DNA from: Candidatus Brocadia sp.
GTDB lineage: Bacteria; Planctomycetota; Brocadiia; Brocadiales; Brocadiaceae
Assembly: GCA_021650915.1 (NCBI GenBank)
Contig: CP091279.1
Span: 390,001 to 422,000, forward strand
Length of the DNA stretch: 32,000 nt
Reading direction: 5' to 3'
The first letter of the stretch is position 1; each line of letters opens with the position of its first letter. The position numbers and the translations under genes were made by a program. Below the pieces are notes generated by a model. That model saw nothing but the letters and a program-made list of their open reading frames with translations, did no database searches and was not told where the DNA came from. Positions 386 through 23,270 of the stretch are shown here, piece after piece.

Positions 386-1195
386 TCAATTTGTAAAGGT
401 TGCCTGGATGATCTTGAGTATCTCATGCTGAATTCCCTTCGTACCAGCGACGATATTGCCGGTTTTTAAATAACGGCTACCACCCTTGAAGTCTGTGACC
501 ACACCGCCCGCTTCTGTCACCAGAAGCGCACCCGCAGCTACGTCCCATGGCGAGAGGGCGCATTCGAAAAAACCGCCAAAGATCCCCTCTGCGGTATAAG
601 CCAGGTCAAGGCAGGCGGAACCTCCCCTCCTGATGCCACGGGCGCGCAGAAAACAATCTTTTAATACCCTGAGGTAGGAATCGATAATGTCTTTTATCCG
701 AAAGGGAAAGCCCGTTGCGATCAGGGCAGAAGCCATGGTTTCCGCGCGGGAGACATGGATACGGTTGTTGTTTTTAAAAGAGCCTTGTTCCCGTATTGCA
801 GAATAGATATTTTCTCTCAGCGGTTCGTAGATAAGACCCATTGCGAGATTCCCCTCGATCTCTAAGGCGATGGAAACGGCAAAACCCGGCAGACCGTGAA
901 TATAGTTCATAGTGCCATCCAGGGGGTCTATGATCCACAAAAATTCAGACGAATTTCTTTCTGCCAGGGATTCTTCCGCCAGGATGTCATGGTTCTTGAA
1001 ATGAGACTTGATGTAACTTTTAATGATGTCTTCAGATTTTTTGTCTACATCAGTGACGTAATCGTTTTTGGCCTTTTCATTGATCATGGAAGCGCTTACC
1101 TTTCCGAAGTGCTCTTTTAAAATAACCCCTGCCTTCAGGGCGGCCTCGCGCGCAATATTACAATAGTTCTGTAAATCGTGTGGAGTTGTTTGCAT
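386..1195 (-). CDS. suhB: Inositol monophosphatase family protein (SuhB/IMPase-like)
   Basis: The ORF-track protein carries the IMPase signature WIIDPLDGTMNYIHGLPGFAVSIAL and a C-terminal WDVAAGALLVTEAGG. The track starts at TTG 1219 with no SD. I prefer ATG 1195 (MQTTPHDL...), which has ggaaggaaag upstream. Confidence 0.85.
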   Translation of the reverse strand: MQTTPHDLQNYCNIAREAALKAGVILKEHFGKVSASMINEKAKNDYVTDVDKKSEDIIKSYIKSHFKNHDILAEESLAERNSSEFLWIIDPLDGTMNYIHGLPGFAVSIALEIEGNLAMGLIYEPLRENIYSAIREQGSFKNNNRIHVSRAETMASALIATGFPFRIKDIIDSYLRVLKDCFLRARGIRRGGSACLDLAYTAEGIFGGFFECALSPWDVAAGALLVTEAGGVVTDFKGGSRYLKTGNIVAGTKGIQHEILKIIQATFTN

Positions 1196-1223
1196 GAGTG
1201 GGATTCTTTCCTTCCGCAAGAGC

Positions 1224-2129
1224 CTACAACAGATTTTGTCCCGTCAGGGCTTTGTAGGCATTGAGGTATTTTTCTGAAGTCTTTTGGATAATTTCGGGTG
1301 GGAGCGTTGGTGCCGGTGGTTTCTTGTCCCAATGGACGCTCTCAAGGTAGTCACGGATAAACTGTTTGTCATAAGAGTGCTGGGGTTTTCCCGGCACATA
1401 GCCGTCTTGTGGCCAAAAGCGTGAGGAATCTGGCGTAAGCGCCTCGTCGATGAGTATCGTTGTATTCTTCTCTGTAATACCCCATTCAAACTTGGTGTCG
1501 CAGATAATAATGCCCCGGTCAAGCGCATAGTCGCGGGCGAGGAGATACAGTTTCATGCTTTTTTCTTTCAATTCTTCGGCGAGATTTTTACCAATCATGT
1601 CGGTAACTTTTGAAAAAGTGATATTTTCATCGTGTCCAATGGTCGCCTTCGTGGATGGAGTAAAGATAGGCTCAGGAAGCGGATCCGATTCTTTGAGCCC
1701 CGCCGGCAGTTTTATGCCACAAATGGAATGGGTTTTTTGGTACTCCTTCCATCCGGAGCCTGCCAGATAACCGCGAACGACACACTCTACGGGAATGACC
1801 TTCACTTTCTTTACCAGCATAGCCCTGCCTGCCAGGATGTCTTTGTGCCGCGATATTACCGGGTTGCCCATTTGTTCTATGTGAGTGGTAATCAAGTGGT
1901 TTTCTATGATACGAGAGGTATAGTTGAACCAGAATTCAGAGAGTCCGGTAAGTACCTGTCCTTTGTAAGGAATGCCGCTGGGCAGGATAACATCAAAGGC
2001 CGAGATGCGGTCTGTTGCCACAATGAGTAAGGTATTATTGATTTCATAGATATCCCGGACTTTACCGCGGTTGCATAAAGTGAGGTCTGGAATGTTTGTC
2101 GTAAGGAGTGGGGTAATTTTATGCTTCAT
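1224..2129 (-). CDS. purC: Phosphoribosylaminoimidazole-succinocarboxamide (SAICAR) synthase
   Basis: 301-aa ORF with PurC motifs: GKVRDIY near the N-terminus, ATDRISAFD, and CDTKFEWG. Confidence 0.92.
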
Positions 2130-2131
2130 GG

Positions 2132-2953
2132 TTATAAGGCAAAATCTGGGATATGTTGCTTGAGTTTTGTCTTGAGTTTGTGAGCGCCCTGGAGGTTCGG
2201 TTTTAATGACAAGGCAATATTGAGGTGCCGTAGGGCATTTTCATATGCCTTTAATGTGAGGTAACACTCGGCTATCTTTTTATGAATAAAGGCATTTTCA
2301 TTTTTATATAGTTTGAGTCTGAGCACCTTTTCATAATAACCCAGGGCTTTTTCGGGAGCAGCGCGGCGTGCCAGATGCCGGCAATAGATGTTTCTTATGC
2401 GTTCTTTCACCTCGTGGAGCAAGTGACTGCGGTGGGTATTGCCTTTGCCCTTTTCAAGGATAAATTCGTAAAGGCTGATGGCCATATCGAATTTATCGAG
2501 TTTTTCATACGCCTCGGCGAGGAGAAAGAGGCAGTCAATAGAGTCGCGTTTGTTTAATGATGAAAAAAAATCAACACCGGCGTAATCTTTTAAGAGACGT
2601 TCATGATTTTTAATGGCGTGGTGTATATGACCGTTTAAAAGGTCTGTGAAAATGGTGCGGACGTGTTCCTGAACAGCACCCGTTGCTGCGGTTGTTTCGG
2701 TTTTTTCCCGTGGTTTGTGCTTGCTGTAGGTATATAAGAGATGCTTGTAGCGCTTGTCGTAGTGTTCACGTGATGTGGAGTTGGAAAGGGTTTTATATGC
2801 CTGGATAATAGTCTTTGTTTTGGATTCAGCCCAAAGCTTGTTTTGACCGTGGATATCCGGATGATATTTTTTAATAAGGGTTCTGAACGAACGTTTTAGT
2901 TCGTCGGTACTTACCTCATAATGCACTTCAAGAATATCGTAGTAATTTATCAT
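2132..2953 (-). CDS. J-domain (DnaJ-like) protein with TPR-like C-terminal repeats
   Basis: The N-terminus YYDILEV...[15 protein letters not shown] contains the HPD tripeptide of J domains. The C-terminal half has helical repeat character ([25 protein letters not shown]). Its stop abuts the purC start. Confidence 0.75.
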
Positions 2954-3020
2954 AGGGAAAACGTGAATAACCTATTTGGAGATTATCTGCGTGATACGGC
3001 CAAAAACCAAGTCAGGAAAA

Positions 3021-3049
3021 ATATTAACAGCTATCTTGTAGCCTGTCAA
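3021..3049 (-). promoter_or_regulatory. Sigma70-type promoter for the J-domain/purC/suhB operon
   Basis: On the minus strand: TTGACA (3049-3044), a 17-nt spacer, then TAATAT (3026-3021). It lies about 60 nt upstream of the ATG at 2953, in the 128-nt gap after the permease gene. Confidence 0.55.
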
Positions 3050-3081
3050 TAGTATCTTATGAAAAGGGAAAAGGGCGGTGG

Positions 3082-4344
3082 TCATTCATAGCGCAATGTT
3101 ACGACGGGGTCTAACCGCGCAGCCCGCAACGCCGGGTAGATGCTAAATACCACGCTGCTTACGACGGCAATGACTGCGGTGATAAGAATGCTCGTCGGAC
3201 TTACTACGGTGGGTATCTGGTTAAAATAGTAGACCTCCGGCGGAAATGGCCTCCAGCCGGTAGTATTATATAATACGTTTTCCAGCCAGTTAATCCGTAG
3301 CGCAATCGACAGGCCTGCAGCGACTCCGAGGCATGCACCCATGCTGCCAATAAGCAGGCCGTGCAAGAGGAAGATGGACATGACTCCCTGGGTGGTTGTG
3401 CCGAGCGCCTTGAGGATGCCGATGTCTTTGGATTTTTCGAGGACAATCATAGTGAGGATTGCAAGGATGTTGAATCCGGCAACCACCAGGATGAAGAACA
3501 GGATGAGCGCCATTACACGCCTTTCCATCATTACAGCAGTTAAAAAGGTCTTTCTCGCGTCTTCCCAGGTTTGAACATAATATTCAAGACCCAATGCGGC
3601 CTGCAGTTGGTCCCGCACCTCGTTTGCAAAGCGATAATCATCTAATTTAACGCTTATGCCGGAGACGGCATTTTTTTCCCTTGAGCCGGTTAATTCCTGC
3701 GCTACCGCAAGGGGGATGTACACGTAATTCTTATCGAAATCATACATGCCAGATCTGAATTTCCCGACGACTGCAAACGCCTTTACGCTGATCTTATCCC
3801 ATTCTTTTAAGGTGACGAGCACGATCTGTTCGCCGTTTTGAATAAAGCTTCCCGTATCTTTTTCCGGTTCACCCGGTCCAAGCCTGAATAATTCTGAACC
3901 GCCAAAGACGCTGGCAGTTTTTTTTTCGCCATGGACTTGCAATAAGTCCTCCGGTTGGTTTCCAAAGGGGGCGATATAAGACCGAAAATCGCTCACGTCT
4001 GATTCTGCGTGAGGGTCTATCCCTTTAAAGTAGACAAACTCCCTTCGGTTTCTCAATTTGATAAGCGCTGGCCCTTCTATATAGGGAGCACACGCAACAA
4101 CGTGGTCAAAGCTTTTAACCTTTTCCATGACGTGTTGGTGATCTTCAAGCCCGTACATCCCGCCCTTCAAGATAATAATATGTGCCAGCGTGCCCCTTAT
4201 CCTGCTCCGGAGTTCCTGGTCAAAGCCGTTCATGACGGAGAGCACGACGATTAGGGTCATTACCCCCACGGCCACTCCGGCGATGGCGAAAAACGAGATC
4301 TTCCTGCTGCGGAGATATCGCAGGCTAATGAAGAGTTTGTACAT
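3082..4344 (-). CDS. LolC/LolE-family (FtsX-like) ABC transporter permease, lipoprotein-release type
   Basis: 420 aa. The N-terminus FISLRYLRSRK... followed by a TM segment and MNGFDQELRSRI is typical of LolC/E. There is a large periplasmic loop and a C-terminal FtsX-type 3-TM bundle ending PALRAARLDPVVTLRYE. Confidence 0.88.
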   Translation of the reverse strand: MYKLFISLRYLRSRKISFFAIAGVAVGVMTLIVVLSVMNGFDQELRSRIRGTLAHIIILKGGMYGLEDHQHVMEKVKSFDHVVACAPYIEGPALIKLRNRREFVYFKGIDPHAESDVSDFRSYIAPFGNQPEDLLQVHGEKKTASVFGGSELFRLGPGEPEKDTGSFIQNGEQIVLVTLKEWDKISVKAFAVVGKFRSGMYDFDKNYVYIPLAVAQELTGSREKNAVSGISVKLDDYRFANEVRDQLQAALGLEYYVQTWEDARKTFLTAVMMERRVMALILFFILVVAGFNILAILTMIVLEKSKDIGILKALGTTTQGVMSIFLLHGLLIGSMGACLGVAAGLSIALRINWLENVLYNTTGWRPFPPEVYYFNQIPTVVSPTSILITAVIAVVSSVVFSIYPALRAARLDPVVTLRYE

Positions 4345-5661: not shown

Positions 5662-5736
5662 GCTAGCGTAGCTCAACGGCGGAGCAGCGGTTTTGTAAAC
5701 CGCAGGTTGTGGGTTCGAGTCCCACCGCTAGCTCCA
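5662..5736 (+). tRNA. tRNA-Thr (anticodon UGU), CCA encoded
   Basis: Hand-folded cloverleaf: acceptor GCTAGCG/CGCTAGC, D arm GCTC..GAGC, anticodon stem GCGGT/ACCGC with loop TT-TGT-AA, T arm GTGGG-TTCGAGT-CCCAC. 75 nt. Confidence 0.93.
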
Positions 5737-5772
5737 TAACGGTAGCTTTGGTATGCACAAGAAGGGCTTAAA

Positions 5773-5857
5773 GGGTGGATTCCCGAGTGGCCAAAGGGGA
5801 CAGACTGTAAATCTGTTGGCATAGCCTTCGGAGGTTCGAATCCTCCTCCACCCACCA
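5773..5857 (+). tRNA. tRNA-Tyr (anticodon GUA), type II with long variable arm, CCA encoded
   Basis: Acceptor GGGTGGA/TCCACCC, anticodon stem ACAGA/TCTGT with loop CT-GTA-AA, variable arm TGGCATAGCCTTC, T arm GGAGG-TTCGAAT-CCTCC. 85 nt. Confidence 0.92.
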
Positions 5858-5889
5858 TACTTAATCAAAGTTCTCATTCGTTCTGTTGT

Positions 5890-5960
5890 GCGGGCGTAGC
5901 TCAATGGTAGAGCCCTAGCCTTCCAAGCTAGTCATGTGGGTTCGATTCCCATCGCCCGCT
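5890..5960 (+). tRNA. tRNA-Gly (anticodon UCC), CCA not encoded
   Basis: Acceptor GCGGGCG/CGCCCGC, anticodon stem CTAGC/GCTAG with loop CT-TCC-AA, T arm GTGGG-TTCGATT-CCCAT. The discriminator T is followed by 'ctt'. Confidence 0.92.
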
Positions 5961-5999
5961 CTTGTTAAGCAGTTTTTCATAAAAAATATATATTTGTGT

Positions 6000-6028
6000 T
6001 TGACATTTGATTTGCTATTTGTTATATT
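6000..6028 (+). promoter_or_regulatory. Near-consensus sigma70-type promoter inside the tRNA cluster, upstream of tRNA-Thr(GGU)-tuf
   Basis: TTGACA (6000-6005), an exactly 17-nt spacer, then TATATT (6023-6028). An A/T-rich UP-like tract (cataaaaaatatatatttgtg) precedes it. It sits in an otherwise unexplained 141-nt gap. Confidence 0.6.
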
Positions 6029-6101
6029 TTTCGACTTCTCCGCTTAATGTAAGTAAGAATAAGGTGTGTCTGTCTTATACATGCGGTTTTCAAAAATCTT
6101 T

Positions 6102-6176
6102 GCTGCTGTAGCTCAGCGGTGGAGCACGTCCTTGGTAAGGACGAGGTCATGGGTTCAAATCCCATCAGCAGCTCCA
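6102..6176 (+). tRNA. tRNA-Thr (anticodon GGU), CCA encoded
   Basis: Acceptor GCTGCTG/CAGCAGC, anticodon stem CGTCC/GGACG with loop TT-GGT-AA, T arm ATGGG-TTCAAAT-CCCAT. 75 nt. Confidence 0.93.
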
Positions 6177-6242: not shown

Positions 6243-7452
6243 CGATGGGTAAAGAGGTATTTAAGCGAACGAAGCCGCATGTGAATGTGGGAACGATAGG
6301 GCATGTGGATCATGGTAAGACGACGTTGACGGCGGTAATAACGCATGTATTGGCGAAGCAGGGGTTGGCAAAGGAGAGGCCGTACGATTCGATAGACAAG
6401 GCGCCGGAGGAGAGGGAGAGAGGGATAACGATAGCGATATCCCATGTGGAGTATGAGACGCAGAAGAGGCATTATGCGCATGTTGATTGTCCTGGTCATG
6501 CGGATTATGTGAAGAACATGATAACGGGGGCTGCGCAGATGGACGGTGCGATATTGGTGGTGAGTGCGCCGGATGGTCCGATGCCGCAGACGCGGGAGCA
6601 TATACTTTTGGCGAGGCAGGTTGGTGTGCCGAGGATTGTGGTGTTTATGAACAAGGTGGATATGCTTGAAGACAAGGAGTTGCTGGATTTGGTGGAGATG
6701 GAGGTAAGGGAGTTGTTGAGCAAGTATAATTTTCCTGGTGACGAGATACCGGTGGTGAGGGGTTCTGCGCTTAAGGCGAATGAGTGTGGGTGTGGTAGTG
6801 CGACGTGCGCGAATTGCGGGCCGATATTGAAGTTGATGGAGGCAGTGGACGCGTATATACCTGATCCGGTGAGGGAGATAGACAAGCCGTTTTTGATGTC
6901 GGTGGAAGATGTGTTTAGTATTAAGGGTCGTGGCACGGTAGGGACGGGCAGGGTGGAGCGCGGTCGTGTGAAAGTGGGTGAAGAGGTGGATATCGTTGGG
7001 ATCAAGCCGGATGTGAAGAAGTCGGTGGTGACTGGGGTGGAGATGTTTAATAAGACGCTGGATGAGGGTCAGGCTGGCGATAATCTTGGGGTATTGTTGA
7101 GGGGTGTGGAGAAGGAGGATCTGGAGCGCGGTCAGGTGTTGGCAAAGCCTGGGAGTATAACGCCGCACAAGAAGTATGAGGCGGAGGCGTATATTCTGAC
7201 GAAGGAAGAGGGTGGTAGGCATACGCCGTTCTTTAATGGGTATCGGCCGCAGTTTTACTTCAGGACGACGGATGTGACGGGTGTGGTGAGTTTGACGGGT
7301 GGGGCGGAGATGGTGATGCCCGGTGATAATGTGAAGGTGAATGTTGAGTTGTTAACGGCGGTGGCGATGGATGAGGGGTTGAGGTTCGCCATTCGGGAAG
7401 GCGGAAAGACGGTTGGCGCTGGAGTCGTTACAAAAATTATTGAATAAAAACA
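6243..7452 (+). repeat. Copy 1 of a 1210-bp apparently perfect direct repeat (tuf CDS plus 2 nt upstream and 5 nt downstream)
   Basis: Translations in four frames are identical between the copies: EF-Tu, a 60-aa alternative plus frame, and two minus frames. Flanks compared by eye diverge at 6242 vs 22060 and at 7453 vs 23271. Confidence 0.9.
6245..7447 (+). CDS. tuf: Translation elongation factor Tu (copy 1, tufB-like context after tRNAs)
   Basis: 400 aa with canonical [14 protein letters not shown] and NKVD G-motifs, plus GRGTV and [10 protein letters not shown] gggggag lies 9 nt upstream. Confidence 0.98.
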
Positions 7453-7465
7453 TTGGGAAAGTGCG

Positions 7466-7615
7466 ATGCGCGAATATGTGACTATGGTATGTAAGGAGTG
7501 TTCGAACAGAAATTATCGAACGCCAAAGAAAACGCAGCAAACGGAAAAGCTGGAGCTAATGAAGTTTTGCAGATCTTGTCGGAAGCACACGAGTCATAAG
7601 GAATACAAAAAATAA
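7466..7615 (+). CDS. rpmG: 50S ribosomal protein L33 (Cys-containing C+ form)
   Basis: Below the ORF-track size cutoff. Hand translation gives MREYVTMVCKECSNRNYRTPKKTQQTEKLELMKFCRSCRKHTSHKEYKK (49 aa), which fits the L33 pattern with CxxC...CxxC and occupies the expected position between tuf and tRNA-Trp/secE. Confidence 0.88.
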   Translation: MREYVTMVCKECSNRNYRTPKKTQQTEKLELMKFCRSCRKHTSHKEYKK

Positions 7616-7652: not shown

Positions 7653-7729
7653 AGGTCTGTAGCTCTAATTGGTAGAGCACCGGACTCCAAATCCGGCTGT
7701 TGGGGGTTCGAGTCCCTCCAGACCTGCCA
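7653..7729 (+). tRNA. tRNA-Trp (anticodon CCA), CCA end encoded
   Basis: Acceptor AGGTCTG/CAGACCT, anticodon stem CCGGA/TCCGG with loop CT-CCA-AA, T arm GGGGG-TTCGAGT-CCCTC. 77 nt. Confidence 0.92.
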
Positions 7730-9437: not shown

Positions 9438-10118
9438 ATGTCAAAACGAAGTAAAAGATATGTAGAATCAAAAAAGATTGTTGACTCGGAAAAAAAATAC
9501 GAGTTAAAAGAAGCAATTAAGTTGCTTAAGTCTTTTAAACGAGCGAAATTTGATGAGAGCGTTGAAGTTGCAATGAAGTTAGGCATAGATCCAAAACAGT
9601 CTGACCAGCTTATCCGAGGCTCTGTTTCATTGCCCAAAGGCATAGGCAGAAGCCTTAAGGTGATTGTTTTTGCTGCCGGGGAGAAGGCAACAATAGCGAA
9701 AAAAGCAGGGGCTGATGAGGTTGGGGCGGAAGAGCTTGTGAAAAAAGTCGAAGGCGGATGGACTGATTTTGATGTGGCAATAGCAACTTCTGATATGATG
9801 CGGTTGGTCGGCAAGCTAGGAAGGGTTCTTGGTCCTCAGGGTAAAATGCCTTCTCCAAAATCTGGCACGGTTACTGATGATATTGAGACGGCGGTTAAAG
9901 AGTTTAAGGCGGGTAAAATAGAATACAGGACCGACGCTGGGGGGAACGTGCATACGATTGTAGGAAAAGTCTCTTTTTCAGACAAAGACCTGGAAGATAA
10001 TATAAATGCATTTGTGAAACAGATAGTTAACTCTCGTCCAGCCTCCGCTAAAGGGGTATTTATTGAAAAAGTATCCGTATCTTCCACGATGAACCCAGGG
10101 ATAATGTTAGAGGTTTAA
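9438..10118 (+). CDS. rplA: 50S ribosomal protein L1
   Basis: 226 aa; FDESVEVAMKLGIDPKQSDQLIRGSVSLPKG is typical of L1. Confidence 0.97.
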   Translation: MSKRSKRYVESKKIVDSEKKYELKEAIKLLKSFKRAKFDESVEVAMKLGIDPKQSDQLIRGSVSLPKGIGRSLKVIVFAAGEKATIAKKAGADEVGAEELVKKVEGGWTDFDVAIATSDMMRLVGKLGRVLGPQGKMPSPKSGTVTDDIETAVKEFKAGKIEYRTDAGGNVHTIVGKVSFSDKDLEDNINAFVKQIVNSRPASAKGVFIEKVSVSSTMNPGIMLEV

Positions 10119-10157
10119 GTCGGGAAACAAAATAGGTGAAGGGAATTAAATAAAGCA

Positions 10158-10685
10158 ATGGCAAATGAGATTAAAGAAGCTATCGTAAAAGAAATGGTTT
10201 CCAGCTATCGTGGCAAATCGAATTATCTGGTCGCTGGGTATCAGGGTATTACGGCATTGGAATTCGATCAACTGCGAAAAGACCTGCGGAAAAAGAAGAT
10301 CAGCTTGGGCATTGTTAAAAATTCGCTTGCAGGAATTGCATTTAAAGAAATTGGGGTTCACGGGATTGTCGATCTTTTAAAGGGCCCAACTGCCATTATC
10401 ACAGGGGATGATGATCCTGTTCTTATGGCAAAGGAAACCATTGGATGGGTAAAAAAAATACCACTTTTAAGCTTGCGAGGTGGATTGGTTGATGGTGCAA
10501 TGGTTTCTGTTCACGATATCAATGATTTGGCAAAGCTTCCGTCGATGCCGGTGCTTCGTACTCAAATAATTACGGGTATTCATGCGCCAATTGTGGGAGT
10601 TGCTGGTGCCTTTAATGCTGTCTTGCGGGGTCTGGTAACGGTATTCCAGGCCATGAAAGACAAAAAAGAAAAAGAGGGTGTATAG
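10158..10685 (+). CDS. rplJ: 50S ribosomal protein L10
   Basis: 175 aa. Called from its position between rplA and rplL and an L10-like sequence ([20 protein letters not shown]). Confidence 0.93.
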
Positions 10686-10722
10686 TTTTTTTGAGGAATT
10701 CGTATTAAGGTGGGAGGATAAA

Positions 10723-11142
10723 ATGACTCAGGTTAGCGAAGAAAAGGCAGTTGAGCCTTCAGGCAAAATTGCGCAGGTGTTGGATTTGGTTGCCGGCATG
10801 TCATTGCTGGAGGCATCTCAGCTGGTGAAGGCGTTTGAGCAGAAATTTGGTGTTTCAGCTGCTGCTGTCGCCGCGGTGCCAGCGGGCGCATCGGTTGCGG
10901 CGGAAGGTAAGGCAGCCGCTGCTGAAGAGAAAACGGCGTTTGATGTGATTTTAAAGGATGGTGGCGCAAATAAGATCCAGGTTATCAAGGCCGTTCGCGC
11001 TGAAACGAATCTGGGATTAAAAGAAGCGAAAGACCTAGTCGAAGGCGCTCCGAAAACGGTAAAGGAAGGGGTAACCAAGGAAGACGCAGAGAAGATCAAG
11101 AAATCGCTCGAGGCGGCTGGTGCCAAAGTGGAAATAAAATAA
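10723..11142 (+). CDS. rplL: 50S ribosomal protein L7/L12
   Basis: It has an Ala-rich hinge and the C-terminal domain [59 protein letters not shown] 10723 follows SD gggagga. The track start at 10678 overlaps the end of rplJ and is unlikely. Confidence 0.95.
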
Positions 11143-11180
11143 TCGTTCTAGTATCTTGGGCTTGAAAATACAGGAATAAT

Positions 11181-14100
11181 ATGGAAATCCGAAATTATGG
11201 TAAGGTTGAAGATGTGGTGGAGATTCAGAATCTCATACAGATTCAAACGAGAGCTTACCGAAATTTTTTGCAAGCTGATGTTCCTGCTTCTAAAAGGAAA
11301 AATCAGGGAGTGGAAGCAATACTGCGTGAGATATTTCCCATCAGCAATTATGACGGGACTATGTCATTGGATTACATCAAGTATGAGCTTGGAAAGCCAA
11401 GATATACGCAAGATGAATGCAGGCAATTGCGCTTGACCTATGGGTGTCCTTTTCGGATTTGGCTGCGGTTGAATAAGGCAGAACCTATTGAGGAGGAGGT
11501 GTATGTAGGCGAAATTCCTGTGATGATTGGTGGTGGTGAGTTTATTATTAACGGTACTGAACGGGTAATAGTGACTCAGTTGCATCGTTCACCCGGGATT
11601 GATTTTATTGAAGAATTTCATGCCGAAAAAAGATTGCATTCCTGTAGAATCATTCCTGAAAGAGGAAGCTGGATTGAACTAGAGGTTGGCAAAAAAGATA
11701 TTTTAACGGTAAAAATCGATCAGAGTGGGAAATTGCCTGCCATGTGCTTTCTCAGGGCATTGTCGGAAAAATACACCAATGATGAGGACATCATCAGGCT
11801 TTTTTATGAAACGGAAACGGTAAAGATTCCTGACTTTGCCGCTGCCTCAAAGTTACGGGGCAGATATACCGTAGAAAAGATCGTTAATCCGCAAACAGGT
11901 GAAATCGTGCTTGAGGCGGGCAGGCAGATGTCTGATACCACAATCAAGGCGGTTGTCGATTTGGAAATTAAAAAGATAGAAGTAATAAAAAAGACGGATG
12001 ATTTGTTGATATTGAATTCTCTAGAGTCAGATTTTACAAAATCTCACGAGGACGCCCTGCTAAAAATTTATGCCCGCTTCCGTCCTGGTAATCCCCAACA
12101 GGTAGAAAAAGCACGCCAGTTGTTTTATGATAAGTTCTTTGATGTAAAACGGTACAGGTTGGGCGCTGTTGGAAGATTCAGATTAAATCGAAAAATGGGG
12201 CATAACATTAATGAAGTCGAGATGACCCTGCAAAAGGAAGATTATGTGGAGGCTATTCGGTACATCATGAAGTTGCGGAGAGGTGAGCCGAATGTATCGG
12301 TTGATGATATCGACAATTTAGGAAACAGGAGGTTGCGCACTATTGATGAGTTGGCAGGTGAGGAGTTGCGTAAGGGTTTTCTGAAATTGCGAAGAACGGT
12401 GCAGGAGAGATTGAGTGTAAAAGATTCTGAACAGTTGACACCGCGTTCGCTGGTAAATTCGAAAGCGATTTTTTCAGCGATTGACTATTTTTTCAGCAGA
12501 AGTGAGTTGTCCCAGGTACTCGATCAGACGAATCCATTAGCGCAGTTAACCCACGAAAGAAGGTTGAGCGCGTTAGGACCAGGTGGATTGAACAGAAAAA
12601 GGGCAGGGTTTGAAGTTAGAGACGTTCATGTGTCGCACTATGGCAGAGTTTGTCCTATAGAAACGCCTGAAGGCACAAATATTGGTTTAATCGCTTCTTT
12701 GAGCATATATGCGACGACTGATGAGTATGGGTTTTTGATTACTCCATATCGTATCATCGATAAAGGAAAAATTATTGAAAAAATCACGTATCTTCGCGCA
12801 GATGAAGAAGAAAATAGAATAATAGCGCCTGCGGATGTAATTATAAAAGGTAAAGAAAAGATGGAAAAAGAAGCGGTGCTTTGCCGGTATAATGGCGACT
12901 TCCACCAGGTGAATATCAAAGACATAAATTATATGGATGTTTCTCCTAAGCAGTTGGTAGGGGTATCAGCAAGCTTAATACCCTTTCTTGAACATAGTGA
13001 TGCAAATAGGGCGCTCATGGGATCGAATATGCAAAGGCAGGCAGTCCCTCTTGCGAGAACTGAACCGCCAATAATAGCAACGGGGATGGAACGGTTTGTC
13101 GCGCAAAATTCGAGTATGACTGTTCAGGCAATTAATGCGGGAGCGGTAACAAAAGTAACGGCTGATGAAATTATTATTGATGATCGAGATGCTTATAAAC
13201 TGAGAAAGTTTGTCGGTTTGAATGAAGGGACGTGTCTGAACCAAAAGCCGATTGTTGCTCATGGTCAGAAGGTAAAAAAAGGAGAGGTTATAGCAGACGG
13301 GGCCGCTACCTGCAACGGAGAGCTAAGTCTCGGGAAAAATGTATTGGTTGCATTTATGACCTGGGATGGATACAACTTTGAAGATGCTATTGTCATTAGT
13401 GAGGCCTTGCTGAAAGACGATCGTTTTACTTCCATACACAGGGATGAATTTGAGGTGGAAATCAGGGAAACCAAGCTTGGCAGGGAGGAGTTTACGCGTG
13501 ATATTCCTAACGTGTCAGAGAAGGCGTTAAGTAACCTTGATGAGAATGGGGTAATACGAATTGGAACAAAGGTAAAACCAGGGGATATCTTGGTTGGCAA
13601 AATTGCGCCAAAAAGCAGGAGTGAGTTGTCTCCGGAAGAGAAGTTGTTGCATGCTATTTTTGGGAGGGCTGGAGAGGATGTTAAGAACGAATCCTTAGAG
13701 GTTCCTTCTGGAATGGAAGGTATCGTGATAAATACCCAGGTGTTTTCAAGAAAGTCCTATCTCTCTGACGACAAGAGACAAAAAATTATACAAGACATAA
13801 GTGAAATAGAATTGAAATATGATGAAAATATCTCGAAAGAATTTGTCAAAATGTTAAAGGCTATCAATGAGGAGATTAAGGAGCCATTGGTAGATGTGCA
13901 GACGGGTCAGGTATATACAATTGAGCGTGGGATGCCGGTTAAATCAGTCCTGACTTTGGAAGAGCAATTCGATATTGAAAACATAGAGTTCAGCAATAAA
14001 AAGAAAAAGGAGAAGGCATCAGAAATTGGTAAAGAGTTTTGTGAAAAAATAGAATTCTTAAAAGATGAAAGAGATAGAAAGATTAACAATTTAAAGCGTG

Positions 14101-19976: not shown

Positions 19977-22031
19977 ATGAATATTGAAAAAATGAGAAAT
20001 TTCGGTATCGCAGCGCATATTGATGCCGGTAAAACAACTACTTCAGAGCGAATTCTTTATTATACGGGCAAATCATATAAAATGGGAGAAGTCCATGAAG
20101 GTACAGCAGTTATGGATTGGATGGAGGAGGAGCAGAAACGCGGAATTACCATTACCGCTGCGGCAACCACCTGTTCATGGAACGATTATCATATTAATTT
20201 AATTGACACGCCAGGTCATGTGGATTTTACCATAGAGGTTGAACGCTCCCTTCGCGTTCTTGATGGTGCTATATGTGTTTTCTGCGGAGTTGGAGGGGTG
20301 GAGGCTCAGTCTGAGACGGTTTGGCGTCAAGCTGACAGGTATCACGTGCCTAGGATATGTTTTGTAAATAAAATGGACCGCATTGGAGCGGATTTCAATA
20401 AAGTGGTTGGTGAAGTTAACGAGCGGCTGGGAATGAAGGCGATCCCCATTCAGTTGCCATTAGGGCGAGAGCAGGACTTCAAGGGTGTTATTGATTTGGT
20501 TAGTATGAAGGCAATGATTTACTCGGACGATGTTGACAAATTGGGGGTGAATTTTTCAGTTGAGGAGATTCCTGAGAATTATAGGAAAGAATCTCTTGCA
20601 CAACGTGAGAAGATGATCGAGGGAGTAGCAGAACAAGTTGATTGGCTTACTGAAAAATTTTTAAACGGAGAAACAATAACAAACGATGAAATAAAAAAAG
20701 CCATCAGGGAAGGAACGATCAACTTAAAGCTTGTGCCAGTAATGTGTGGTTCTGCTTTTAAGAAAAAAGGGGTCCAACTACTTCTTGACGCAGTTTGTGA
20801 CTATCTGCCTTCTCCGCTTGACAGGAAATCAATCGTTGGTACGAACCCGTATACTGATGAAGAAGTATTGAGAAAACCACTCCCCAATGAACCATTCAGT
20901 GCCTTGGCCTTTAAGATAGCTTCAGATAAACACGGTGATTTAACGTTTATCAGGGTTTATTCAGGAACAGTAAATGCTGGTGCGCGGGTAATTAATTCGG
21001 GAAAAGACAAAAAAGAGCTGGTCAGTCGTATTTATAAAATGCATGCAAATACAAGAGAACAGGTAGAGTCTCTCTCTGCTGGTGACATTGGAGCGGTGGT
21101 TGGTTTGAAATATACTGTTACCGGTGACACCTTATGTGATGCTGACCAGCCAATCGTACTTGAGAAAATGGAATTTCCCGATACCGTGATATCCATGGCA
21201 ATTGAACCAAAAACTGATGCAGAAAAGGAAAAATTGGGAGTCGCTTTATCAAAGCTGGCAAAAGAAGACCCGACATTTAAAGTTCGCATGGATAAGGAAA
21301 CGGGACAAATGATTATTTCTGGGATGGGCGAATTGCACCTGGAAGTAATTAAGAACCGAATGCTGAGTGAATATAAGGTAGATGCCAATGTGGGCGCACC
21401 AAAGGTATCTTATCGGGAAACGATTGGGAAAAAGGTAGAAGTTGAGGGTAAATTTATTCAGCAGACAGGCGGTCACGGTCAGTATGGACACGTTTGGATT
21501 ACCTTGGAGCCTTTTAAAGGCGAAGAACCGGTGAGTTTTGAGGATGCGATTGTGGGGGGGAAAATTCCAAAGCAGTATGTCCGGTCGGTGGAAAAGGGAA
21601 TCAAGGAAACGGCTGCAACTGGTGTGGCTGGTGGCTATTCATTAATTGATATAAAAGTCACACTGACTGATGGATCAACGCACCCGGTAGATTCGTCTGA
21701 TTTAGCATTTTACACGGCTGCAAGCATTGCACTGCGAAAAGGTGTGGAGATGGCAAAGTCGATATTACTAGAACCCATCATGTCTTTAGAAATTGTAGTT
21801 CCGGAACAGTATATGGGAGATGTGATAAGCGAGATCCACAGTCGCAGGGCGAATATCATTGAAATGGGCACACGGGGAACTTTAAGAATTATCAAGGGAG
21901 ATGTTCCGCTTGCAGAAATGTTCGGGTACTCGACGGTATTGCGATCGATTACTCAAGGCAGGGGTACATTTACCATGGAACCGTTAGAATATAGACCGGC
22001 GCCTGCTAAGGTTTTCAGTAGTGTGGCATAA
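19977..22031 (+). CDS. fusA: Translation elongation factor G
   Basis: 684 aa; [33 protein letters not shown] and NKMDR G-motifs, in str-operon context. Confidence 0.97.
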
Positions 22032-22060
22032 CGTTTCTTCAAAACAATCGGAGGTTTAAG

Positions 22061-23270
22061 CGATGGGTAAAGAGGTATTTAAGCGAACGAAGCCGCATGT
22101 GAATGTGGGAACGATAGGGCATGTGGATCATGGTAAGACGACGTTGACGGCGGTAATAACGCATGTATTGGCGAAGCAGGGGTTGGCAAAGGAGAGGCCG
22201 TACGATTCGATAGACAAGGCGCCGGAGGAGAGGGAGAGAGGGATAACGATAGCGATATCCCATGTGGAGTATGAGACGCAGAAGAGGCATTATGCGCATG
22301 TTGATTGTCCTGGTCATGCGGATTATGTGAAGAACATGATAACGGGGGCTGCGCAGATGGACGGTGCGATATTGGTGGTGAGTGCGCCGGATGGTCCGAT
22401 GCCGCAGACGCGGGAGCATATACTTTTGGCGAGGCAGGTTGGTGTGCCGAGGATTGTGGTGTTTATGAACAAGGTGGATATGCTTGAAGACAAGGAGTTG
22501 CTGGATTTGGTGGAGATGGAGGTAAGGGAGTTGTTGAGCAAGTATAATTTTCCTGGTGACGAGATACCGGTGGTGAGGGGTTCTGCGCTTAAGGCGAATG
22601 AGTGTGGGTGTGGTAGTGCGACGTGCGCGAATTGCGGGCCGATATTGAAGTTGATGGAGGCAGTGGACGCGTATATACCTGATCCGGTGAGGGAGATAGA
22701 CAAGCCGTTTTTGATGTCGGTGGAAGATGTGTTTAGTATTAAGGGTCGTGGCACGGTAGGGACGGGCAGGGTGGAGCGCGGTCGTGTGAAAGTGGGTGAA
22801 GAGGTGGATATCGTTGGGATCAAGCCGGATGTGAAGAAGTCGGTGGTGACTGGGGTGGAGATGTTTAATAAGACGCTGGATGAGGGTCAGGCTGGCGATA
22901 ATCTTGGGGTATTGTTGAGGGGTGTGGAGAAGGAGGATCTGGAGCGCGGTCAGGTGTTGGCAAAGCCTGGGAGTATAACGCCGCACAAGAAGTATGAGGC
23001 GGAGGCGTATATTCTGACGAAGGAAGAGGGTGGTAGGCATACGCCGTTCTTTAATGGGTATCGGCCGCAGTTTTACTTCAGGACGACGGATGTGACGGGT
23101 GTGGTGAGTTTGACGGGTGGGGCGGAGATGGTGATGCCCGGTGATAATGTGAAGGTGAATGTTGAGTTGTTAACGGCGGTGGCGATGGATGAGGGGTTGA
23201 GGTTCGCCATTCGGGAAGGCGGAAAGACGGTTGGCGCTGGAGTCGTTACAAAAATTATTGAATAAAAACA
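22061..23270 (+). repeat. Copy 2 of the 1210-bp apparently perfect direct repeat
   Basis: See copy 1. The offset between copies is 15818 nt, and both are on the plus strand. Confidence 0.9.
22063..23265 (+). CDS. tuf: Translation elongation factor Tu (copy 2, tufA-like context after fusA)
   Basis: The 400-aa protein is identical to copy 1. SD ggagg lies 8 nt upstream. Confidence 0.98.

Follow-up and report, generated by a model that had tools for sequence, protein, structure and literature searches.

Why should the gene for elongation factor Tu (EF-Tu) be written in codons that the genes around it do not favour? The question is posed by a stretch of 32,000 nucleotides (the window in what follows; positions 390,001 to 422,000 of contig CP091279.1, assembly GCA_021650915.1) from an anammox planctomycete, a Candidatus Brocadia metagenome-assembled genome (MAG). 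The window carries two tuf genes, identical over all 1203 nt, in the order aroC; tRNA-Thr(UGU), tRNA-Tyr, tRNA-Gly(UCC), tRNA-Thr(GGU); tuf; rpmG; tRNA-Trp; secE; nusG; rplKAJL; rpoBC; rpsLG; fusA; tuf; and the S10 and spc operons. The same EF-Tu protein is encoded, without a single change, on contigs of further Candidatus Brocadia sp. MAGs (GCA_019186885.1, GCA_029760155.1 and JGI 3300038826). An initial annotation, made from the letters alone, had described tuf as a sharp island of codon usage that is absent from fusA and the ribosomal protein genes. The fraction of codons ending in G (G3), Wright's effective number of codons (Nc), contrasts made amino acid by amino acid and a pooled comparison with rplL all agree with that description. 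The tuf bias is a case of codon bias in a very highly expressed gene, whose direction is non-canonical and whose scope is a single gene; it is real and strong, and it extends deep into the phylogeny.

Any judgement of tuf has to start from a background that is itself asymmetric. The + strand is rich in G across the whole window (GC skew 0.25-0.30), and in the minus-strand genes at its left end (386-4344) the fraction of codons ending in C exceeds that ending in G (G3 0.13-0.24, C3 0.32-0.35). For a planctomycete this is a marked strand asymmetry of the replication type.

A codon island confined to the tuf genes

Computed recounts reproduced the hand counts of the initial annotation exactly for ACG (23 of 25 Thr codons), GCG (20 of 27 for Ala), CCG (15 of 20 for Pro), ATA (14 of 22 for Ile), AAA (3) and GAA (6). 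The 13 AGG codons also stood, albeit among 22 Arg codons rather than the 23 first given. Likewise reproduced were the third positions of the first 66 codons (39 G, 14 A, 10 T and 3 C) and the composition of the first 198 nt (37% G, 15% C). The statement that pyrimidine endings are nearly confined to amino acids without a purine-ending option was too strong, about 30% of the pyrimidine-ending codons lying in families that have one. Over the whole coding sequence (CDS) the third positions comprise 224 G, 107 T, 39 A and 30 C (G3 0.56, T3 0.27, A3 0.10, C3 0.07), whereas the 32 other + strand genes have a mean G3 of 0.269 (sd 0.052, maximum 0.41), which places tuf at z = +5.6. Its Nc is 34.3, compared with 52-56 in fusA, rpoB, rpoC, aroC and the pooled ribosomal protein genes; GC3 is 0.64 versus 0.41. 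Contrasts between tuf and its pooled neighbours are significant for Ala, Glu, Lys, Pro, Thr, Val, Ile, Arg, Leu and Gly (p = 1e-3 to 3e-10), and the edges of the island are abrupt: G3 runs at 0.27-0.37 in the last windows of fusA, at 0.43-0.67 in tuf and at 0.27 in rpsJ.

The rule that tuf follows is G at the third position and otherwise ATA, a codon that is usually avoided, not general G-richness, C-avoidance or purine loading. In codon pairs ending in either purine (Lys, Glu, Gln, TTR-Leu and AGR-Arg) the G fraction is 0.90 in tuf and 0.44 in its neighbours (p = 2e-21), and in the four-fold boxes without Gly it is 0.73 versus 0.27. The pyrimidine share of those boxes is 0.19 rather than 0.47 (purine share 0.81 versus 0.53, p = 5e-11), with C at 0.04 versus 0.15 and no shift in the balance of C and T inside the boxes. 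Pooled over six lineages, the four-fold boxes of tuf use A, T and C at 0.60, 0.49 and 0.45 times the frequency of the neighbouring genes, and G at 2.67 times. The ATA codon supplies 0.64 of Ile in tuf and 0.29 in the neighbours within the window (111 of 146 versus 632 of 1736 in six pooled lineages). In two-fold pyrimidine codons C does not gain; its fraction is 0.22 versus 0.28 in the window (p = 0.24) and 0.19 versus 0.27 over five genera (odds ratio (OR) 0.63, p = 6e-4). For Gly, GGT is retained and GGG is raised; AGA is avoided (one of 22 Arg codons). Synonymous first positions are unaffected (TTG/CTG, OR 1.06; AGG/CGG, OR 0.69, not significant). On a finer scale, Shine-Dalgarno (SD)-like motifs, GGGG and TA are all rarer in tuf than in its synonymous permutations (mean z of -1.7, -1.6 and -1.9 across five genera), which indicates that subtle selection acts on the synonymous sites of this gene. 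Avoidance of SD-like motifs and of G runs probably explains why GGT stands in place of GGG.

None of this is seen in the contrast genes. The ribosomal protein genes, fusA, rpoBC and nusG have G3 values of 0.19-0.36 and Nc values of 52-56. For fusA, whose end 31 nt before the second tuf copy agrees with the distance first reported, the values are G3 0.26, A3 0.29 and Nc 55.7, and a scan in windows found no increase of G3 toward its 3' end. Pooled over five genera, rplL has a four-fold-box G fraction (G4) of 0.23, a G-ending fraction of 0.42 for Lys, Glu and Gln and an ATA fraction of 0.38, compared with 0.60, 0.83 and 0.73 for tuf (p = 2e-29, 5e-23 and 7e-4, respectively); its codon usage is indistinguishable from that of rplK, rplA, rplJ and rpoB. 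The rpmG gene has 20 G-ending codons of 49 in the window and a mildly raised G4 over the five genera (24 of 56, 0.43), while its G-ending fraction for Lys, Glu and Gln (0.48) is that of the background. The possibility that other highly expressed genes share the preference for G-ending, ATA and AGG codons was thus not borne out, since the ribosomal protein genes, fusA and rplL lack it both in the window and in the relatives. As far as these sequences show, the tuf codon set is not the general optimal set of the organism: the same codons are not preferred in other highly expressed genes, and neither C-ending codons nor ATC are preferred in tuf.

Table 1. Features of the window discussed in the text (window coordinates)
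Feature	Position	Strand	Remarks
tRNA cluster Thr(UGU), Tyr(GUA), Gly(UCC), Thr(GGU)	5662..6176	+	ARAGORN; upstream of tuf copy 1
Putative sigma-70-like promoter	6000..6028	+	TTGACA-17-TATATT with extended TG, 11/12; consensus match alone
Antisense ORF, 343 aa	6191..7222	-	Within tuf copy 1; twin of 333 aa at 22039-23040 in tuf copy 2; rejected as a gene
tuf copy 1	6245..7447	+	tufB-type context, tRNA cluster-tuf-rpmG-tRNA-Trp-secE-nusG; NCBIfam TIGR00485, 722 bits
Cys4 loop, EF-Tu domain 1, residues 180-193 (14 residues)	6782..6823, also 22600-22641	+	CxC...CxxC
Last 20 codons of tuf	7385..7447, also 23203-23265	+	G-ending rule lapses
rpmG (L33)	7466..7615	+	18 nt 3' of tuf copy 1; co-transcription control
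tRNA-Trp(CCA)	7653..7729	+	ARAGORN; after rpmG in the tufB-type locus
rplL (L7/L12)	10723..11142	+	Key contrast gene, without the bias
fusA (EF-G)	19977..22031	+	Contrast gene, ordinary codon usage; 31 nt 5' of tuf copy 2
tuf copy 2	22063..23265	+	tufA-type context, rpsL-rpsG-fusA-tuf-rpsJ; identical to copy 1

Distribution of the island and concerted evolution of the copies

Relatives were compared by way of tuf and its 10-kb flanks from Kuenenia, Scalindua, Loosdrechtia, the Brocadiaceae MAG JALDQZ and deeper Brocadiia and Brocadiales MAGs, and loci spanning both possible tuf sites were obtained through RpoB homologues. Whether the bias extends to the closest relatives, a check proposed in the initial annotation, can be answered in the affirmative: the island is present in every two-copy anammox lineage examined, namely Brocadia, JALDQZ, Loosdrechtia, Kuenenia, Scalindua, JAURAC and JBFOND. 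In the island lineages the G3 of tuf is 0.36-0.56 versus 0.23-0.31 in the neighbouring genes, and ATA makes up 0.64-0.88 versus 0.29-0.46 of the Ile codons. Only 110 nt of the second tuf copy of JBFOND lie on its contig, which ends there, and 109 of them match; JAURAC, in which only the copy after fusA was seen, was counted as two-copy by virtue of its close kinship with JBFOND. All the two-copy lineages probably go back to one evolutionary transition.

Within each genome the two copies are kept identical by gene conversion confined to the CDS. They differ at 0, 2, 1, 0 and 5 nt in five genera, and wherever both sites are readable the stretch of identity starts 0-14 nt 5' of the ATG and breaks off 1-9 nt 3' of the stop; in Brocadia the shared sequence extends just 2 nt 5' of the ATG and 5 nt past the stop. 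A second Brocadia strain (JGI 3300038826, also WBZY01044870; loci L003 and L004) differs by four synonymous tuf variants, at nt 162, 351, 525 and 837, and carries the same four changes in both of its copies, from which it follows that conversion is fast and ongoing. Genera differ at 34-47% of the synonymous tuf codons, far above the differences between copies. At identical amino acids, codon differences between genera reach 79-93% of the independent-draw expectation in tuf and 77-107% in other genes. Because synonymous sites are thus near saturation and the bias is nonetheless kept in each genus, it must be continuously regenerated rather than inherited as a relic. Dozens of rpoB-bearing anammox metagenome contigs are 14-16 kb long, matching the spacing between the two tuf copies, which indicates that short-read assemblies break at these identical repeats.

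Among the single-copy Brocadiales, three lack the island and one has it in a weak form. The excess of G4 in tuf over the other genes is +0.25 to +0.46 in the two-copy lineages and +0.14, +0.07, +0.01 and 0 in the single-copy ones. Thus two-copy JBFOND has a G4 of 0.42 in tuf versus 0.17 in the other genes, and an ATA fraction of 0.86 versus 0.38. In three single-copy lineages fusA abuts rpsJ directly: JAUQZZ (G4 0.27 versus 0.20, p = 0.055; ATA 0.58 versus 0.49), ERZ25071401 (G4 0.16 versus 0.15; ATA 0.38 in both) and JAIQZQ (G4 0.28 versus 0.14, p = 4e-5; ATA 0.27 versus 0.39). In JAIQZQ the G-ending fraction of Lys, Glu and Gln is also raised in tuf (0.54 versus 0.30), without enrichment of ATA. 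On the 55-kb contig of JBHIBD no second identical tuf was found, and the island is absent. Duplication and homogenisation of tuf thus go with the strongest form of the island, and a weak G shift exists without duplication. A candidate for a divergent second tuf in a basal lineage (P0098) was rejected, as it is the tufB-type locus of another MAG. A gene that bears on the decoding of ATA, tilS (for the tRNA-Ile lysidine synthetase), is found in JAUQZZ (locus L100, 1-1486), a few kb 5' of the tRNA-tuf cluster.

Beyond the anammox bacteria, 80 loci from other phyla, none above 78% in EF-Tu identity, were taken from among the matches listed in an EF-Tu contig scan, and the statements about other phyla below hold for that set. 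A codon survey of 78 loci, consisting of the window, other phyla from this set and the Brocadiales relatives, scored a shift where G in the four-fold boxes of tuf exceeded that of both the ribosomal protein genes and rpoBC/fusA/nusG by at least +0.15. About 35 of the 78 sampled species show such a tuf-only G shift, for example members of the Acidobacteriota (L083, +0.54), Gemmatimonadota (L047, +0.44) and Chloroflexia (L077, +0.44), several Gamma-, Beta- and Alphaproteobacteria, Synergistota and Verrucomicrobiota. The result held when the comparison was redone on homologous in-frame segments, so as to exclude mis-called ORFs of GC-rich genomes. In such genomes the shift comes mostly at the cost of C. 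In the shifted lineages other than anammox, G4 is 0.33 in rplL, 0.42 in other ribosomal protein genes and 0.66 in tuf, so that rplL moves in the opposite direction to tuf. No shift was found in the sampled Firmicutes, Actinobacteria, Bacteroidota, other Planctomycetes or Binatia. The phyla reported to have concertedly evolving tuf pairs overlap with those showing the shift (PMC6053082).

The anammox tuf is an extreme, low-GC version of this wider pattern, to which a preference for ATA is added. Among the matches listed, that preference is clear outside anammox only in locus L046 (uncultured bacterium SRR19160658_binner12; tuf at 10001-11209), which lies outside the Brocadiales, encodes an EF-Tu of 70% identity without the cysteine loop described below, and has its RpoB and RpoC among the closer non-anammox matches. 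In its tuf, G-ending codons are raised, ATA is 0.50 versus 0.31, C in two-fold codons is 0.26 versus 0.44 and GGT is 0.56 versus 0.21. A literature search for a G-ending bias restricted to tuf found no earlier report, which is no proof of novelty.

The rule lapses at one place within the gene. In the last 20 codons, pooled over seven two-copy lineages, 28 of 84 codons end in G (0.33), whereas the remaining 20-codon windows all lie at 0.58-0.77 (p = 1e-8); over the rest of tuf the rule is flat, codons 1-20 included (0.65). Near the 3' end the codons GTC GTT ACA AAA ATT are identical at the nucleotide level in four Brocadiaceae genera, despite near saturation of synonymous sites elsewhere, and single-copy relatives have G-richer codons at these positions. 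The few differences between tuf copies cluster just 5' of this segment, at nt 1167-1176. Either a conserved element at the RNA or DNA level or an edge effect of conversion may account for the terminal segment.

Origin of the protein and causes of the codon bias

As one possible cause of the island, the initial annotation had listed a foreign tuf allele copied into both loci. Such an allele, acquired horizontally, would still carry the codon usage of its donor. Some features of the protein are in line with a foreign origin. Among the matches listed, the anammox EF-Tu is nearest to that of Binatia (77-78% identity) and most distant from that of other Planctomycetes (70-73%), whereas NusG, L11, L1 and RpoB of the window are nearest to Planctomycetes; this comparison is of identities between the window and loci L008, L022, L034, L041, L053 and L056. 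In all Brocadiales EF-Tu sequences a loop with four cysteines (Cys4 loop, Table 1), which resembles a metal-binding knuckle, stands where domain 1 usually has a variable loop. Outside the Brocadiales the motif occurs in one Binatia sequence only (L008) among 96 sequences, the ones from other phyla being from the matches listed; other Planctomycetes lack it, as do the two solved EF-Tu structures that matched best, which are the only structures whose alignments were inspected. These similarities suggest an ancient transfer of this type of EF-Tu, or else unequal rates. An ancient foreign origin of the protein type is possible, but it would not explain the codons of the present day. EF-Tu identities inside the Brocadiales track taxonomy (Brocadia 95-100%, Loosdrechtia 93%, Kuenenia 90%, Scalindua 83-85%), and single-copy Brocadiales with the same EF-Tu type show no island, or a weak G shift (L103). 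Binatia tuf genes are not G-shifted, and no sampled genome has a background usage that combines a G3 of 0.56 with a C3 of 0.07. Moreover, every two-copy genus keeps the bias with its synonymous sites near saturation, where a donor signature would have decayed. As a cause of the codon bias, the foreign allele is effectively refuted, and we give it hardly any credence.

What we tentatively favour, as an explanation that comes close to being probable without quite reaching it, is selection at the level of decoding on the output of tuf itself, with gene conversion homogenising the copies. The tuf mRNA would be steered onto codons that have a dedicated Watson-Crick reader, that is, tRNAs with C at anticodon position 34 (C34) and the lysidine-bearing tRNA-Ile2, with a U34 tRNA usually serving as a second reader of the favoured codons. 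Selection would act in cis, on the yield of EF-Tu from its own maximally loaded mRNA, and not by way of global ribosome economy. Demand for EF-Tu would also lead to the keeping of two copies, conversion merely spreading and homogenising the changes, and avoidance of SD-like motifs and G runs would trim the rule, as where GGT replaces GGG. Action in cis would leave the ribosomal protein genes, rplL included, without a shift, and the tie to EF-Tu demand would make the bias strongest where two copies are kept. The pattern respects the boundaries of codons and tRNAs rather than those of nucleotides: codons with a Watson-Crick reader of their own rise, choices served by a single G34 tRNA barely move and GGT is spared. 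This favours selection at the decoding step, as does the fine-scale avoidance of motifs at the synonymous sites of tuf alongside the codon rule, and the unshifted rplL and ribosomal protein genes rule out the usual global effect of ribosome economy. Reliance on C34 and lysidine codons was among the proposals of the initial annotation; it stands to the extent that the codon pattern fits it best, with G-ending codons everywhere, ATA, and no gain of C in the C/T pairs read by a single tRNA. Enrichment of G-ending codons in two-fold purine families is known where U34 and C34 tRNAs coexist (PMC7374057). The genome of Kuenenia contains 45 tRNA genes and a single rRNA operon (PMC5854607), numbers compatible with a near-complete set of one gene per anticodon, C34 species included; these genomes seem to have roughly one gene for each tRNA species.

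Several observations weigh against selection on decoding. L7/L12, the product of rplL, is present in several copies per ribosome in E. coli, so that the translational flux through rplL is expected to be within a few-fold of that through each tuf copy. As rplL is nevertheless unshifted, selection simply proportional to translational flux is excluded for anammox tuf, and what is left, the rescue in cis of an elongation-limited mRNA, is a step that we infer. The genes contrasted with tuf were limited to fusA, rpoBC, nusG and those for ribosomal proteins, rplL included. An Akashi-type test of accuracy found no association of preferred codons with conserved residues (OR 1.1, p = 0.77), and the choice of GGT, as well as of TTG over CTG, is not predicted by a simple count of tRNA supply and demand. 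Across 11 Brocadiales lineages the G content of first positions and the Val/Ile ratio of EF-Tu climb with G3 (rho 0.75), a hint of pressure at the nucleotide level, although a site-wise test of mutation pressure on the amino acids was null (5 up, 6 down). Finally, the lapse of the rule in the last 20 codons is predicted neither by selection on decoding nor by the conversion model considered next.

The hint of nucleotide-level pressure would suit a duplication-linked, strand-asymmetric form of biased gene conversion, in which the processing of heteroduplexes lets the coding-strand G allele win inside the converted tract. The recognition hierarchy of MutS, T:G and A:G glycosylases and a consistent transfer of the template-sense strand are its proposed means, and mismatch repair strongly shapes tuf conversion in Salmonella (PMC5485169). 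The specificity of the bias for tuf, island boundaries that equal the conversion tract, the ongoing conversion seen in the strain haplotypes and in the 0-5 differences between copies in five genera, and an island that is most pronounced in two-copy lineages but weak or missing in single-copy Brocadiales are all as this account would have it. So are the G shift in phyla known for concerted tuf pairs (Proteobacteria, Acidobacteria and Chloroflexi; PMC6053082) and, among the matches listed, its absence from the sampled Firmicutes, Actinobacteria, Bacteroidota and other Planctomycetes. We nonetheless regard it as unlikely. Conversion between two copies within a genome has no amplification by population size, and, judging from the odds, G would need to win about 80-90% of the time against each of A, T and C, which we consider unlikely in itself. 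Codon-specific exceptions (ATA raised, GGT spared) are unexpected under a bias acting on nucleotides; the terminal 20 codons at the 3' end are homogenised yet not G-biased, whereas the 5' edge is fully biased; a single-copy relative (L103) has a significant G shift; and the converting tuf pair of E. coli has none. Classical GC-biased gene conversion (gBGC) was rejected, as it predicts a gain of C: a force that moves G/(G+A) from 0.44 to 0.90, or 2.4 log-odds units, should take C/(C+T) from 0.28 to about 0.8, and C falls instead. Of the earlier suggestion that GC-biased conversion was combined with strand-asymmetric mutation, the concerted evolution survives, in view of the paired variants. The gBGC component fails on the fall of C, asymmetry of transitions fails on the pyrimidine-to-G shift and ATA, and a weak G shift is found in a single-copy relative. 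Selection or mutation at the RNA or DNA level, unrelated to decoding, appears decidedly improbable. Its candidates are a G-rich, C-poor transcript resistant to Rho or RNase, avoidance of RNA polymerase (RNAP) pausing, reduced structure, and deamination of the coding strand. In its favour, tuf has the strongest coding-strand GC skew of the window (0.44-0.54 versus 0.25-0.30) and a small C-to-T shift in two-fold codons, tuf copy 1 lies behind a near-consensus putative promoter and tRNA genes and may thus be very heavily transcribed, and rpmG downstream has its mildly raised G4. Recoding, however, leaves the predicted folding energy unchanged. The minimum free energy (MFE) of native tuf is -339.6 kcal/mol, compared with -334.5 ± 12.3 for 40 recodings with neighbour usage (z = -0.4) and -347.9 ± 6.4 for synonymous permutations. 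The proposed purine-loaded, poorly pairing mRNA is supported neither by this MFE, within the range of the recodings, nor by the four-fold boxes, in which A-ending codons are not favoured. Relative to permutations with its own usage, tuf shows no extra avoidance of RNase E-type RNWUU, Rho YC, MazF ACA or RNAP YG motifs (z about 0 or positive), and there is no avoidance of C at synonymous first positions. Transitions can produce neither the pyrimidine-to-G shift nor the preference for ATA; together with the unaffected Lys, Glu and Gln codons of rpmG and the unshifted fusA, this argues against transcription-associated strand-asymmetric mutation. Single-copy relatives with the same tRNA-tuf arrangement also lack the island.

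A regulatory role is the remaining alternative: in codon-biased translation, the tuf dialect would tie EF-Tu synthesis to the charging, abundance or modification of a subset of tRNAs, whether C34, lysidine or U34 species of the uridine-5-oxyacetic acid (cmo5U) type that read G, and EF-Tu would be uncoupled from ribosome synthesis in starvation or redox stress. A precedent comes from mycobacteria, where ACG-rich transcripts of the DosR regulon are selectively translated as cmo5U-bearing tRNA-Thr(UGU) rises in hypoxia (PMC5114619), and tRNA-Thr(UGU) belongs to the conserved cluster upstream of tuf copy 1. The initial annotation had held that the adjacent tRNA-Thr genes (UGU and GGU) are not the cognate C34 reader of ACG; this needs a small correction, in that tRNA-Thr(UGU) can read ACG by wobble (PMC5114619 and established knowledge). 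The usage of tuf is strongly skewed to codons of a specific tRNA subset (G-ending plus ATA), the preferred set (ACG, AGG, TTG, ATA and G-ending codons) is read by minor single-codon isoacceptors, and tuf differs in its codons from the ribosomal protein genes including rplL, which elsewhere shifts opposite to tuf. On the other hand, EF-Tu is so abundant that its own codons would account for much of the load on those tRNAs, contrary to a logic of low demand, and a regulon of one gene would be unusual. A literature search turned up no usable figures on EF-Tu abundance in anammox proteomes, nor tRNA-seq, modification or proteomic results bearing on condition-dependent output. We hold the regulatory account to be quite unlikely. 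Equally doubtful is the broader version, according to which many slow growers with a duplicated, concertedly evolving tuf give EF-Tu a private dialect of G-ending codons, joined by ATA in anammox bacteria, so that its supply is set or buffered apart from that of ribosomes. As speculative, too, is the suggestion that this dialect would use C34 and lysidine decoding, distinct from or opposite to the dialect of ribosomal proteins, in a programme of one gene that is averaged away in reference sets. These five explanations leave a remainder for causes not considered here.

Neighbouring elements, known systems and significance

ARAGORN identifies five tRNA genes within the window, and the cluster of four is found ahead of tuf in all Brocadiales examined, one-copy and two-copy alike. 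The candidate sigma-70 promoter lies between tRNA-Gly(UCC) and tRNA-Thr(GGU) and would drive tRNA-Thr(GGU), tuf copy 1 and rpmG apart from the first three tRNAs. A terminator scan of the gap between tuf copy 1 and rpmG found no terminator-like site. The antisense ORF in tuf copy 1 was rejected as a gene. Its frame is not conserved, the stop-free stretch being 369 aa in the window and 92-223 aa in relatives, and it is a by-product of the scarcity of A-ending sense codons: the first codon position of the antisense frame is the complement of the third position of tuf, so that a scarce A3 removes stops, which begin with T.

The bias invites comparison with several known systems and coincides with none. 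As with the major-codon preference of E. coli, the gene of an abundant protein has a low codon diversity (Nc 34) and favours GGT, and G-ending Lys, Glu and Gln codons are known to result where C34 tRNAs are present (PMC7374057). In E. coli, however, the bias is common to tuf, fusA and the ribosomal protein genes and graded across them, and consists, by the same scripts and in the literature (PMC7374057), of C in two-fold codons, ATC for Ile and U in four-fold boxes, without ATA; the anammox bias is restricted to tuf, favours G in four-fold boxes and ATA, and moves away from C. Akin to the concerted evolution of tufA and tufB (Lathe & Bork 2001; Abdulkarim & Hughes 1996; PMC5485169; PMC6053082), the copies occupy the classical tRNA-tufB-secE and str-operon contexts, are nearly identical within a lineage while orthologues have diverged, and have a tract limited to the CDS. 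That literature describes homogenisation (PMC5485169; PMC6053082), but no direction of codon change such as anammox tuf has, and Planctomycetes are not among the six phyla listed for concerted tuf pairs (PMC6053082). Similar to gBGC, the GC3 of the converted gene is raised and the effect is confined to the recombining tract; unlike gBGC, only G rises, ATA and GGT are codon-specific exceptions, and a very large disparity would be required. The over-use of ACG and G-ending codons relative to the genome, with tRNA-Thr(UGU) encoded beside tuf, recalls the DosR system (PMC5114619), the differences being that tuf is a housekeeping gene rather than a stress regulon and that its bias spans nearly all amino acids. 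Thermophile-type usage likewise has AGG and ATA as preferred Arg and Ile codons, yet it is genome-wide, whereas here it is one gene of a mesophile that avoids AGA and is depleted in A-ending codons, which is not purine loading.

These results bear on how codon usage is read in many genomes. Reference sets for the codon adaptation index and the tRNA adaptation index, as well as predictors of growth rate, treat tuf, fusA and the ribosomal protein genes as one class of optimal codons. In anammox bacteria, and apparently in nearly half of the 78-species sample drawn in part from the matches listed, tuf follows a rule of its own, sometimes opposite to that of rplL. Its atypical composition could mislead detectors of horizontal gene transfer and genomic islands, and its identical copies break short-read assemblies. 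If biased conversion were the cause, it would be a strand-specific, G-directed form that has not been described before. If decoding-level selection were the cause, it would be isoacceptor-dependent selection acting in cis on one mRNA, including the positive use of ATA and tRNA-Ile2, in organisms thought to be without any translational selection. The anammox island may belong to a wider pattern, specific to tuf, that has apparently gone undescribed.

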